Origin: an uncultured Chthonomonadaceae bacterium
GTDB taxonomy: Bacteria; Armatimonadota; Chthonomonadetes; Chthonomonadales; Chthonomonadaceae
Length of the DNA stretch: 34,909 bases
NCBI GenBank assembly: GCA_963835065.1
Contig: CAWIEK010000047.1
Coordinates: 1 to 34,909 of the forward strand
Reading direction: 5' to 3'
Shown here: one piece after another, positions 27,609 through 29,088 of the stretch
How positions within the stretch are numbered: position 1 is the first letter of the stretch
Layout of the letters: each line of letters begins with the position of its first letter
Program-made: the position numbers and the translations under genes
Notes under the pieces: generated by a model
What the model was told of the DNA's origin: nothing
Seen by the model: only the letters and a program-made list of their open reading frames with translations
The model's database searches: none

Positions 27609-27790
27609 CGAACCATCAACATTTCGGGTGACTGCTCCACTTGCAAATGCAAGCGGCTTTTATCCCGTCTCAACGGGAACGCTGTGCAGTCCCACAGCGG
27701 CAATACCATTCTCCACAAAGTCTTGGAAGCCTTCCGGCACACTCATCTTGAGTGACCGTAATGCCGCATGGAGAATGTTGGTAGCGGCAT
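27609..27790 (-). ncRNA. Predicted TnpB omegaRNA (reRNA) with guide at 27627-27609; 5' end estimated
   Basis: Right-end architecture ...GGACTGCACAGC...AAGCCGCTTGCATTTGCAAGTGGAGCAGTCAC: subterminal hairpin with TCAC end at 27628, then CCGAAATGTTGATGGTTCG. Confidence 0.72.
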
Positions 27791-28862
27791 TGATGTCCCT
27801 ATTTAGCGACAAGCCGCATTGTGGGCAATCATGCCAACGTTTCGATAGGTTCTTGGGAACATGGCAGCCACAACCGGAACACATCTGACTGGTGCCGCAT
27901 GGATTTACAGCCATCATCTGCCGACCGGCTCTTGCAGCCTTCTCCGACAAAACGCGATGGAACAAAGCCCATGCCGCATCCCCTATGCTCTTGGCAAGGC
28001 AATGGTTGCCTTGCATGTTTTTGATACGAAGATTTTCAACCGCAATGAATCCAAAGCGGTTGACCAACTTTCTGGCTGTTTGATGCGCAAAGTTGTGTCG
28101 GCGGTTTCGGATGCGCTCATGGATGCGACGTACCACTTTTTGCGCCTTCGCTCTCGCCTTGCTGCCCTTTTTCTGCTTATTGTGCTTGCGTTGAGCGGTC
28201 GCAAGAGCCTTTTCTTCCTTGCGGAAGAAGCGGGGATTGTCTACAAACTCTCCATTTGAAAGCGTGGCAAACTTTGACAAGCCAACGTCTATGCCAACCT
28301 GTTCCTGACTTTCCGTAAGTTCTTCTTTTTGTACTTCGTAGCATAAACAGGCGTACCATTTATCACCCTGTCGCCGAACCGTACAGGTTTTCAGTATTCC
28401 CTCCACTCGCCGATGCACGACTGCTTTGATAACGCCAATTTTGGACAACGTGACAGTGTTGTTTTCAACAGTAAATCCCCTCTGCGGATAGCAGAAACTA
28501 TCATACTGCTGTTCGCTCTTGCTGCGCGGATAACCGGGCCTGTCGCCTTTTTCAATTCTGCGAAAAAACGCGGAATAGGCCAACTCAACCCGTCGTACTA
28601 CATCTTGCAGGGTCTGACTGAAAACGGCGCTCAACTCCGGGTGCGCGGGAGAAAGGTCGGAGGTAAATTGCTTCTTCCATATTGGTAAAGCCGCTTGCTG
28701 CTCGTGGCGCGATACAGACTTATGTTCCGTTTCCCAGGCATACTTACGCCAATGAAGAAGCGAGTTGTATACTTCGCGGCATATATTCAGCGTCCGCCGC
28801 AAAATGGTTTCCTGCGCCGCAGATGGATACAAGCGAATTTTAGAACACAGGTGAAACAGCAT
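27660..28862 (-). CDS. tnpB: TnpB RNA-guided endonuclease (IS200/IS605 OrfB), no adjacent tnpA
   Basis: KIRLYPS N-terminus; PGYPRSK; RuvC VGIDVG, IAVENL and NRDINAA; Zn ribbon CSGC..CPQC. All three acidic catalytic residues are present. Confidence 0.95.
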   Translation of the reverse strand: MLFHLCSKIRLYPSAAQETILRRTLNICREVYNSLLHWRKYAWETEHKSVSRHEQQAALPIWKKQFTSDLSPAHPELSAVFSQTLQDVVRRVELAYSAFFRRIEKGDRPGYPRSKSEQQYDSFCYPQRGFTVENNTVTLSKIGVIKAVVHRRVEGILKTCTVRRQGDKWYACLCYEVQKEELTESQEQVGIDVGLSKFATLSNGEFVDNPRFFRKEEKALATAQRKHNKQKKGSKARAKAQKVVRRIHERIRNRRHNFAHQTARKLVNRFGFIAVENLRIKNMQGNHCLAKSIGDAAWALFHRVLSEKAARAGRQMMAVNPCGTSQMCSGCGCHVPKNLSKRWHDCPQCGLSLNRDINAATNILHAALRSLKMSVPEGFQDFVENGIAAVGLHSVPVETG

Positions 28863-28939
28863 CAGAAACGTTCCGGTTATGAGAGCGCAATCTTGATGTA
28901 ATAAACAACAATTCACGCAAAATTAGGAAAGTGTCTGCC

Positions 28940-29004
28940 AAACAATAAATCGGCATAGCGTTCTTCCTACCCTTACTATGAAGTAGAAATTTCACTATGC
29001 CGAT
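28940..29004 (-). terminator. Long hairpin with U-rich tail between the tRNA and tnpB
   Basis: ATCGGCATAG/CTATGCCGAT 10-bp arms (28949-28958, 28995-29004) with an inner stem, followed by TTATTGTTT on the - strand. Confidence 0.6.
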
Positions 29005-29016
29005 GGGGAGTTGGTA

Positions 29017-29088
29017 CTCCCTGTGATGGACTCGAACCATCAACCCTTCGGTTAACAGCCGAATGCTCTGCCATTGAGCTAACAGGGA
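29017..29088 (-). tRNA. tRNA-Asn(GTT)
   Basis: Cloverleaf TCCCTGT TA GCTC AATGGCA GAGC A TTCGG CTGTTAA CCGAA GGGTT GATGG TTCGAGT CCATC ACAGGGA G. CCA is not encoded directly after the discriminator (the sequence reads G-TACCA). Confidence 0.96.

Follow-up and report, generated by a model that had tools for sequence, protein, structure and literature searches.

We describe a locus in which a tnpB gene lies directly behind a tRNA-Asn gene and carries a 19-nt guide that copies the wild-type tRNA-Asn sequence of related bacteria. The locus was found in the window analysed here, which is the entire 34,909-nt contig C47 of an uncultured Chthonomonadaceae genome (G000; 8.0-Mb assembly, 71 contigs). 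Two further genomes frame the comparison: G001, a second carrier of the arrangement, and G002, a species of the same genus without tnpB at tRNA-Asn. We propose, with a confidence that falls just short of even, that the intact TnpB and its omegaRNA form a fixed-guide selfish nuclease akin to the Seg endonucleases, which likely cuts wild-type tRNA-Asn genes and spares the mismatched genes of its own genome.

All features of the locus lie on the minus strand, and coordinates are read from high to low. They are as follows.

29164..29193, minus strand: sigma-70-type promoter of the tRNA-Asn unit, TTGACA-18-TATCAT with TG (11/12 consensus matches)
29017..29088, minus strand: tRNA-Asn(GTT), allele A26/G44/G45 (Rfam tRNA, 69.3 bits)
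29052..29056, minus strand: GTTAA, candidate transposon-associated motif (TAM), comprising the anticodon G34 U35 U36 plus A37 A38 (inferred from the sequence)
29033..29051, minus strand: protospacer-like tRNA stretch, CCGAAGGGTTGATGGTTCG (17/19 against the guide; mismatches at guide positions 6 and 7, that is 29046 and 29045)
28949..29004 (or 29004-28940), minus strand: long hairpin followed by a T-rich run, likely the tRNA terminator (-28.1 kcal/mol, z -5.3, 0/200 shuffles)
28863..28948, minus strand: 86-nt spacer with no recognisable IS200/IS605 left end (comparison with paralog left ends)
27660..28862, minus strand: tnpB, ATG at 28862, 400 amino acids, ISDra2-like (Pfam domains, RuvC triad, zinc ribbon)
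27628..27745, minus strand: 3' part of the omegaRNA scaffold together with the right end up to GTCAC; overlaps the end of tnpB (covarying hairpins in 14 relatives, fold)
27609..27627, minus strand: guide CCGAAATGTTGATGGTTCG (19/19 identical to positions 39-57 of the wild-type tRNA-Asn of relatives)

The right-end tip, GGAGCAGTCAC, finishes at 27628, and a metallophosphoesterase gene begins 43 nt past the guide.

The guide and its match to tRNA-Asn

The 19 nt behind the right end (27627-27609) match the linked tRNA-Asn (29051-29033) at 17/19 positions, directly after GTTAA (29056-29052). The match is exactly 19 nt long; the next base is C on the guide side and A in the tRNA. Both mismatches fall in the tRNA at positions 44 and 45. 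By our own arithmetic, a 19-mer would reach 17 or more identities by chance with a probability of ~6e-9 per offset, or ~6e-7 over the 72-nt tRNA and both strands, and the score of the match was reached by 0/500 shuffles. Throughout G000, only the tRNA-Asn genes and the guide itself lie within three mismatches of the guide. An earlier note on this DNA, made from the letters alone, had reported the 17/19 match, its coordinates, its start after GTTAA and its stop after 19 nt, all of which proved correct on recount. It had also placed tRNA-Asn and tnpB in the same orientation about 155 bp apart; both are indeed on the minus strand, with 154 nt between the tRNA and the tnpB ATG.

Comparison with paralogous elements shows what the 19 nt are. 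Of 17 right-end sources, 14 were recognised by pattern (G000_C7, G372_L198 and G410_L195 were missed), and all 14 recognised right ends finish in GGAGNNGTCAC (GGAG-N-N-GTCAC). Their similarity stops at GTCAC, and the sequences that follow are mutually unrelated, except in the window and G001, which carry versions of the same 19-mer. Because similarity ends at this point in all 14, the boundary is the canonical right end and the 19 nt occupy the TnpB guide position, as had been claimed. The 14 right ends also have two covarying hairpins in common (covarying pairs are, for example, 138/153 and 183/196), and the minimum-energy fold gives the scaffold three hairpins with the guide unpaired. As the guide has the tRNA sense, its pairing partner would be the template strand of the DNA and not the tRNA.

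The 5-mers in front of the paralog left ends, whose boundaries were inferred from the onset of paralog likeness, are TTTAA (3), TTGAC (2), GTTAC (1) and TTTAC (2). GTTAA fits this series and is thus a candidate TAM. It consists of the anticodon with A37 and A38, which agrees with the earlier placement of a candidate TAM in the anticodon loop. For the paralog on C53, no usable empty site was found to fix the boundary between TAM and left end, as the orthologous intergenic DNA of G002 is too diverged.

The wild-type target in relatives

The promoter, tRNA and terminator recur in G002, at 79% identity over 259 nt, and no tnpB follows them. Similarity between the two loci spans window positions 29206-28948 and ends just past the terminator; the promoter region is similar in both G002 and G001 from the -35 element onward. 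The tRNA-Asn of G002 differs from that of the window at only 3/72 positions (26, 44 and 45), and here GTTAA is followed by a 19/19 match to the guide. Other guide-like sites in G002 are matches with 2-3 mismatches, none of them at a TnpB right end. Upstream of this wild-type tRNA-Asn, at a distance of about 330 nt and on the other strand, is a thiamine pyrophosphate (TPP) riboswitch (60.1 bits; G002, L016:1184-1286).

For a wider survey, 401 genomes of the phylum were searched by pattern for the 19-mer with at most one mismatch, and 30 loci were inspected. The 19-mer is present in 25/31 other family genomes. Among the inspected loci, 22 from the family and three from the order level are tRNA-Asn genes with GTTAA before the match; the others are two TnpB right ends (the window and G001), one other tRNA and two chance matches. 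The ATGTT form is the family wild type, found in 22 family genomes with checked context. What had been put forward as a plausible natural allele thus exists, also in the element-less G002.

A second carrier with the same guide

The only tRNA-Asn gene of G001 sits after panC; behind it come a terminator, tnpB, a right-end tip as in the window, and the guide CCGAAATGTTGGTGGTTTG. The TnpBs of the window and G001 are sisters with 99/99 support in a 14-row tree, from which G372_L197, G372_L198, G000_C43, G000_C53 and G011_L005 were left out because their open reading frames (ORFs) had not been extracted correctly or in full. The two proteins share 61% identity, with a nonsynonymous divergence (dN) of 0.34, saturated synonymous divergence (dS) and a third-position identity of 0.42. 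Their ORFs are intact, with 400 amino acids in the window and 408 in G001. The spacer and the DNA beyond the guide cannot be aligned between the two. The guides are identical at 17/19 positions, for which our own arithmetic gives P ~2.5e-5 at p = 0.42 per site, and the G001 guide agrees with the GGTGG variant of the wild type at 18/19.

As the guides are so alike despite saturated synonymous sites and unalignable neighbours, guide and ORF appear to be maintained by selection, in an element that bears no sign of being able to transpose. It had been suggested earlier to see whether close TnpB homologues lie next to tRNAs, with guides that covary with the tRNA and keep variable-loop mismatches. 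G001 provides a homologue beside tRNA-Asn, in which the guide is kept; it did not track the linked tRNA.

The tRNA-Asn alleles of the carriers

There are three tRNA-Asn genes in G000: the one in the window, its variant on contig C55, and one in a 16-tRNA array on C49. Guide positions 6-7 are GG in all three, and one more mismatch to the guide is found in the array copy. The tRNA-Asn of G001 is mismatched to its own guide at six positions (4, 5, 6, 13, 14 and 18). This means that a perfect target is absent from both carrier genomes, and every tRNA-Asn in them is mismatched within guide positions 4-7. The anticodon stem of G001 reads CCCGG/CCGGG, with two compensated pair changes; every other tRNA-Asn examined has TTCGG/CCGAA. 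Position 26 changes jointly with position 44, its tertiary partner, in both carriers. With 66-70 bits, every allele is still recognised as a tRNA. The guides stayed wild type rather than following the adjacent tRNA, and G001, not the window, offers the stronger case for escape.

The earlier note had described the two mismatches as the first two unpaired bases of the variable loop. They are positions 44 and 45, and a third linked change, at position 26, had been missed. Its description of the allele as apparently self-immunised was partly supported: all carrier tRNA-Asn genes are mismatched near the TAM, and the GGGTT state is not private to carriers, as it also occurs in genus g4.

The C49 array (430274-432286, L068) holds 16 tRNA genes in ~2 kb, including the second tRNA-Asn and a tRNA-Ile(TAT). 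Contig C4 of G002 has a similar array copy of tRNA-Asn. ARAGORN also reported in G000 a tRNA with the anticodon TTA (stop) and a tRNA-Cys(ACA), the latter on C49 outside the array.

An intact nuclease gene with no sign of mobility

The window TnpB matches PF01385 (OrfB_IS605; 2.1e-27), PF07282 (Cas12f-like TNB; 3.2e-20) and PF12323 (helix-turn-helix; 1.8e-9), and residues 8-373 align to ISDra2 TnpB (PDB 8bf8/8exa) with an E value of 2.5e-53. The RuvC residues D192/E276/D356 and the four cysteines of the zinc ribbon (CxxC...CxxC) are invariant between the TnpBs of the window and G001.

Y1 transposases (PF01797) were found in G000 only on C42, C51, C68 and C49. The window contig has no match, in agreement with the earlier statement that tnpA is missing. 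The spacer in front of tnpB is about half as long as its paralog equivalents (~165-190 nt from inferred TAM to ATG) and showed no significant similarity to paralog left ends, in a test of low power, as those left ends are themselves diverged and the controls were weak. Copies in G000 are limited to the window and a 99.5% identical strain-variant contig; the next best matches are partial and 65-71% identical. Paralogous TnpBs in G000 and its relatives are 45-62% identical, and a scan of genome_contigs with this one protein returned a single real relative, a 56% paralog in a Chthonomonadaceae metagenome-assembled genome. As read from the genome, the element is single-copy, lacks TnpA and a recognisable left end, and combines a full RuvC triad with a canonical omegaRNA scaffold.

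Strain variation and origin of the locus

Contig C55 of the same assembly carries a duplicate of window positions 26312-34909 (C55:69-8757; 98.4-99.0% identity) and then continues into contig C26. It most likely represents a second strain in the assembly. Similarity to C55 starts exactly at the end (26312) of a type II restriction-modification pair at 24232-26316, which is made up of a D12-class adenine methyltransferase and, after it, a SacI-like endonuclease. Within a 1649-nt tract (27495-29143), C47 and C55 differ at only two places, against a mean of 1.6%. The borders of this tract are more divergent, with 13 differences in ~190 nt on one side (27302-27494) and six in 41 nt on the other (29144-29184), the latter including 3-nt and 2-nt replacements in the spacer of the tRNA promoter and in the leader. 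The pattern could reflect recent conversion or recombination, and is ambiguous. A recent sweep of the tnpB tract was considered and is not counted as evidence, because the low divergence runs on into lpdA and is not specific to tnpB.

A panC-tRNA-Asn context was found at 6/25 outgroup tRNA-Asn loci examined and in G001, and by gene order this is the ancestral context. G000 has the junctions panC-ankyrin and lpdA-tRNA-Asn; G002 has lpdA-ankyrin (G000 C31:12350-12800; L013; L194). This pattern fits one reciprocal exchange that would have moved the tRNA-tnpB unit, and there is no clean empty site.

By the canonical rule, the guide is the right flank of the insertion point. Therefore the most likely ancestral event is an insertion behind the TTAA of a tRNA-Asn anticodon loop. 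Insertion by itself does not yield the present layout, in which tRNA and terminator are intact to the left of tnpB and no more than 19 nt of tRNA follow on the right; further steps are required. Three routes are possible: insertion into the second of two tandem tRNA-Asn copies, recombination between direct repeats that deleted the left end together with the split half, or repair of the split gene from another copy. Remnants of a split tRNA-Asn were sought between the terminator and tnpB and past the guide, and none was significant (scores reached by 107/500, 42/500 and 412/500 shuffles). At 28863-28885, immediately ahead of the tnpB ATG, TAACCGGAACGTT resembles the TAM end and target start TAACCGAAATGTT at 11/13 positions. 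This resemblance is not significant (107/500 shuffles) and could be the trace of a former tRNA copy.

Proposed mode of action and alternative explanations

If TnpB and its omegaRNA are active as proposed, the ribonucleoprotein would break both DNA strands of every wild-type tRNA-Asn gene that it met, in the region of the T-arm. It could meet such a gene in naive kin to which it had been transferred, or the gene could arrive on incoming DNA. The candidate TAM is the anticodon, which cannot mutate, and therefore only changes in the protospacer would protect; survival would need a resistant allele or repair from it. The linked resistant tRNA-Asn allele, about 110 bp from tnpB, would thus be favoured, and through shared downstream flanks co-conversion would carry tnpB along. 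The module would act like a free-standing homing endonuclease of the T4 SegB type, or like a cleave-and-rescue drive, with the difference that it would be guided by RNA. The escape alleles of the carrier lineages would owe their spread or fixation to this pressure.

Several observations weigh against this proposal. The flanks of the tRNA unit differ among G000, G001 and G002, and homing between these species by homologous recombination is not evident; the earlier suggestion of a homing element found no support in these flanks. The genome of G002 is only 80% complete. There are only two carriers, from one genus, so that few independent events stand behind the association. A metagenome scan (35/64 parts) for the junction of right end and guide, GTCACCCGAAATGTTG, returned at least 117 loci; these were rejected as further instances because their flanks show chance 16-mers, and none lies beside a TnpB among the matches listed. 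The tnpB of C55 differs by a single synonymous substitution and has lost 1 nt from an A5 run (window 28018-28022), a frameshift that is either decay or an assembly error. The same A26/G44/G45 (GGGTT) state is found in genus g4 (G005 and G311) with no TnpB within ~3 kb. It is therefore a natural alternative state, and the G000 allele need not be an escape mutation; it may have existed before the element arrived. Variation in the T-stem (guide positions 12-14) is likewise natural within the family. For TnpB7, one study reports that single mismatches sharply lower editing at weak TAMs, which speaks for the proposal, and are tolerated at a strong TAM (PMC11043419). By analogy with the latter, two mismatches may not give full protection.

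The main and serious rival is that the locus is an insertion scar with no present role, which we regard as rather unlikely. Here, an ordinary IS200/IS605 copy would have entered after the TTAA of a tRNA-Asn copy (tandem, partial or replaced), later deletions would have taken the left end and the split tRNA half, and the differences of the intact tRNA would be ordinary variation. The guide is always the right-end flank among the right ends of the family, TTAA-like 5-mers precede the paralog left ends, GGGTT is natural in the element-free genus g4 and tnpB is frameshifted on C55, all of which a scar would explain. Yet a scar should decay, and the guide is conserved at 17/19 positions amid saturated synonymous sites and unalignable non-coding neighbours. 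The gene is moreover open and catalytically complete in two species, without TnpA, a recognisable left end or extra copies, the tRNA-Asn of G001 has four coordinated stem substitutions unseen in the other genomes examined, and no significant remnant of the split 5' half was detected.

Selection on tnpB and guide without mobility would suit a host guard, in which the fixed guide destroys incoming DNA with wild-type tRNA-Asn, such as phage tRNA genes or the attP sites of elements that integrate at tRNA-Asn, and the tRNA of the host has been recoded. tRNA-Asn-like genes are common in phage records (958 records at 60-95% identity), and the locus adjoins the restriction-modification pair described above. 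Among the phage matches listed, none exceeds 95% identity, and the tRNA-Asn loci examined showed neither an integrase nor an island. TAM plus target had 0 exact matches in viral_contigs, a weak test, as phages of this phylum are few or missing in the collections. The earlier idea of a guard against phage tRNAs or attP sites thus found nothing in its favour in viral_contigs, and we consider the guard improbable. Even further down the scale, and in our view very improbable, is a TldR-like repressor or a homing guide like that of CRISPR-associated transposons (CASTs), which would bind the adjacent tRNA-Asn without cutting it. The guide does resemble the adjacent gene, and Cas12k transposons are reported to reserve a guide of their own for attachment sites at tRNA genes (10.1101/2021.02.06.429022). 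Against this, the RuvC triad is intact, the mismatches to the adjacent tRNA are TAM-proximal and number six in G001, and the target lies within the gene, not in a promoter. When 21 window ORFs (11 of them without any match) were compared with Pfam, including the four neighbours of tnpB, no Tn7-type family was found and tnsB, tnsC and tniQ families were absent; no search for CRISPR arrays was made.

Beyond the nuclease reading itself, we suggest, more tentatively, a natural bacterial RNA-guided cleave-and-rescue drive. An off-transposon TnpB beside a recoded tRNA-Asn would exclude or convert wild-type alleles and force compensatory evolution of the tRNA. We found no description of a TnpB guide directed against a tRNA gene with a resistant linked allele in the literature searched. 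To our knowledge, TnpB has three fates: transposon maintenance with a guide that changes at each hop, nuclease-dead repressors, and Cas12. If the proposal is true, a transposon-free active TnpB with a guide conserved across species, directed against the wild type of an essential tRNA, would be a fourth. Free-standing homing endonucleases would then have a counterpart that works with an RNA guide, and engineered cleave-and-rescue drives an analogue in nature. It would also be a case in which a mobile-element nuclease shapes the sequence of a core tRNA, by way of compensatory changes in the stem of an arm that is otherwise invariant.

Other features of the window

A GH127 beta-L-arabinofuranosidase is split over two ORFs, 17936-18748 and 18805-20601 (window 17936-20601), which suggests a frameshifted or interrupted gene. 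A dispersed repeat of ~40-75 nt lies at 29441-29514, within the long N-terminal extension of the dihydrolipoyl dehydrogenase ORF; it recurs dozens of times in G002 and many times in G000.

Comparison with known systems

Cleave-and-Rescue (ClvR) drives are synthetic systems in insects, in which an RNA-guided nuclease is directed against the wild type of an essential gene and linked to a recoded, resistant copy. In comparison, the locus described here would be a natural bacterial case, and its rescue allele would be the resident gene itself.

ISDra2 TnpB with its omegaRNA (PDB 8bf8, 8exa and 8h1j) has the same domains, the same RuvC triad, a scaffold that overlaps the 3' end of the gene, and a guide that is the right-end flank. 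Unlike ISDra2, the window element has no TnpA and no recognisable left end, and is present in a single copy. Its guide is not a random flank either, but a conserved copy of the wild type of an essential gene, common to two species.

TldR proteins, as PMC10705468 describes them, are TnpB derivatives off the transposon that have a fixed guide against a host locus, an inactivated RuvC domain and promoters as targets. In contrast, the RuvC triad of the window TnpB is intact, and a perfect target is absent from the host genome. The locus is also reminiscent of type V-K CASTs, which are reported to have a TnpB-derived effector downstream of a tRNA and a dedicated guide that matches the tRNA gene (10.1101/2021.02.06.429022). 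It differs from them in that its RuvC site is intact and its TnpB thus predicted to be active, in that it has no Tn7-type genes, and in that its guide fits a foreign allele better than its neighbour.

SegB of phage T4 is a free-standing homing endonuclease of the GIY-YIG type, located in a tRNA cluster. As PMC2330249 reports, it recognises the tRNA T-arm and drives the inheritance of the T4 tRNA region. As in SegB, a nuclease gene lies beside a tRNA, a tRNA gene would be recognised, putatively cleavable sites are found in relatives without the nuclease, and preferred inheritance of the nuclease with the neighbouring tRNA allele is predicted (PMC2330249). SegB, on this account, relies on recognition by protein and acts in phage crosses, whereas the present system, known from sequence only, would use an RNA guide on a bacterial chromosome. 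The two have in common a trait of homing endonucleases that can be read directly from the genomes: the perfect site occurs in G002 and 22 family genomes, and an altered site lies beside the nuclease gene in the carriers.

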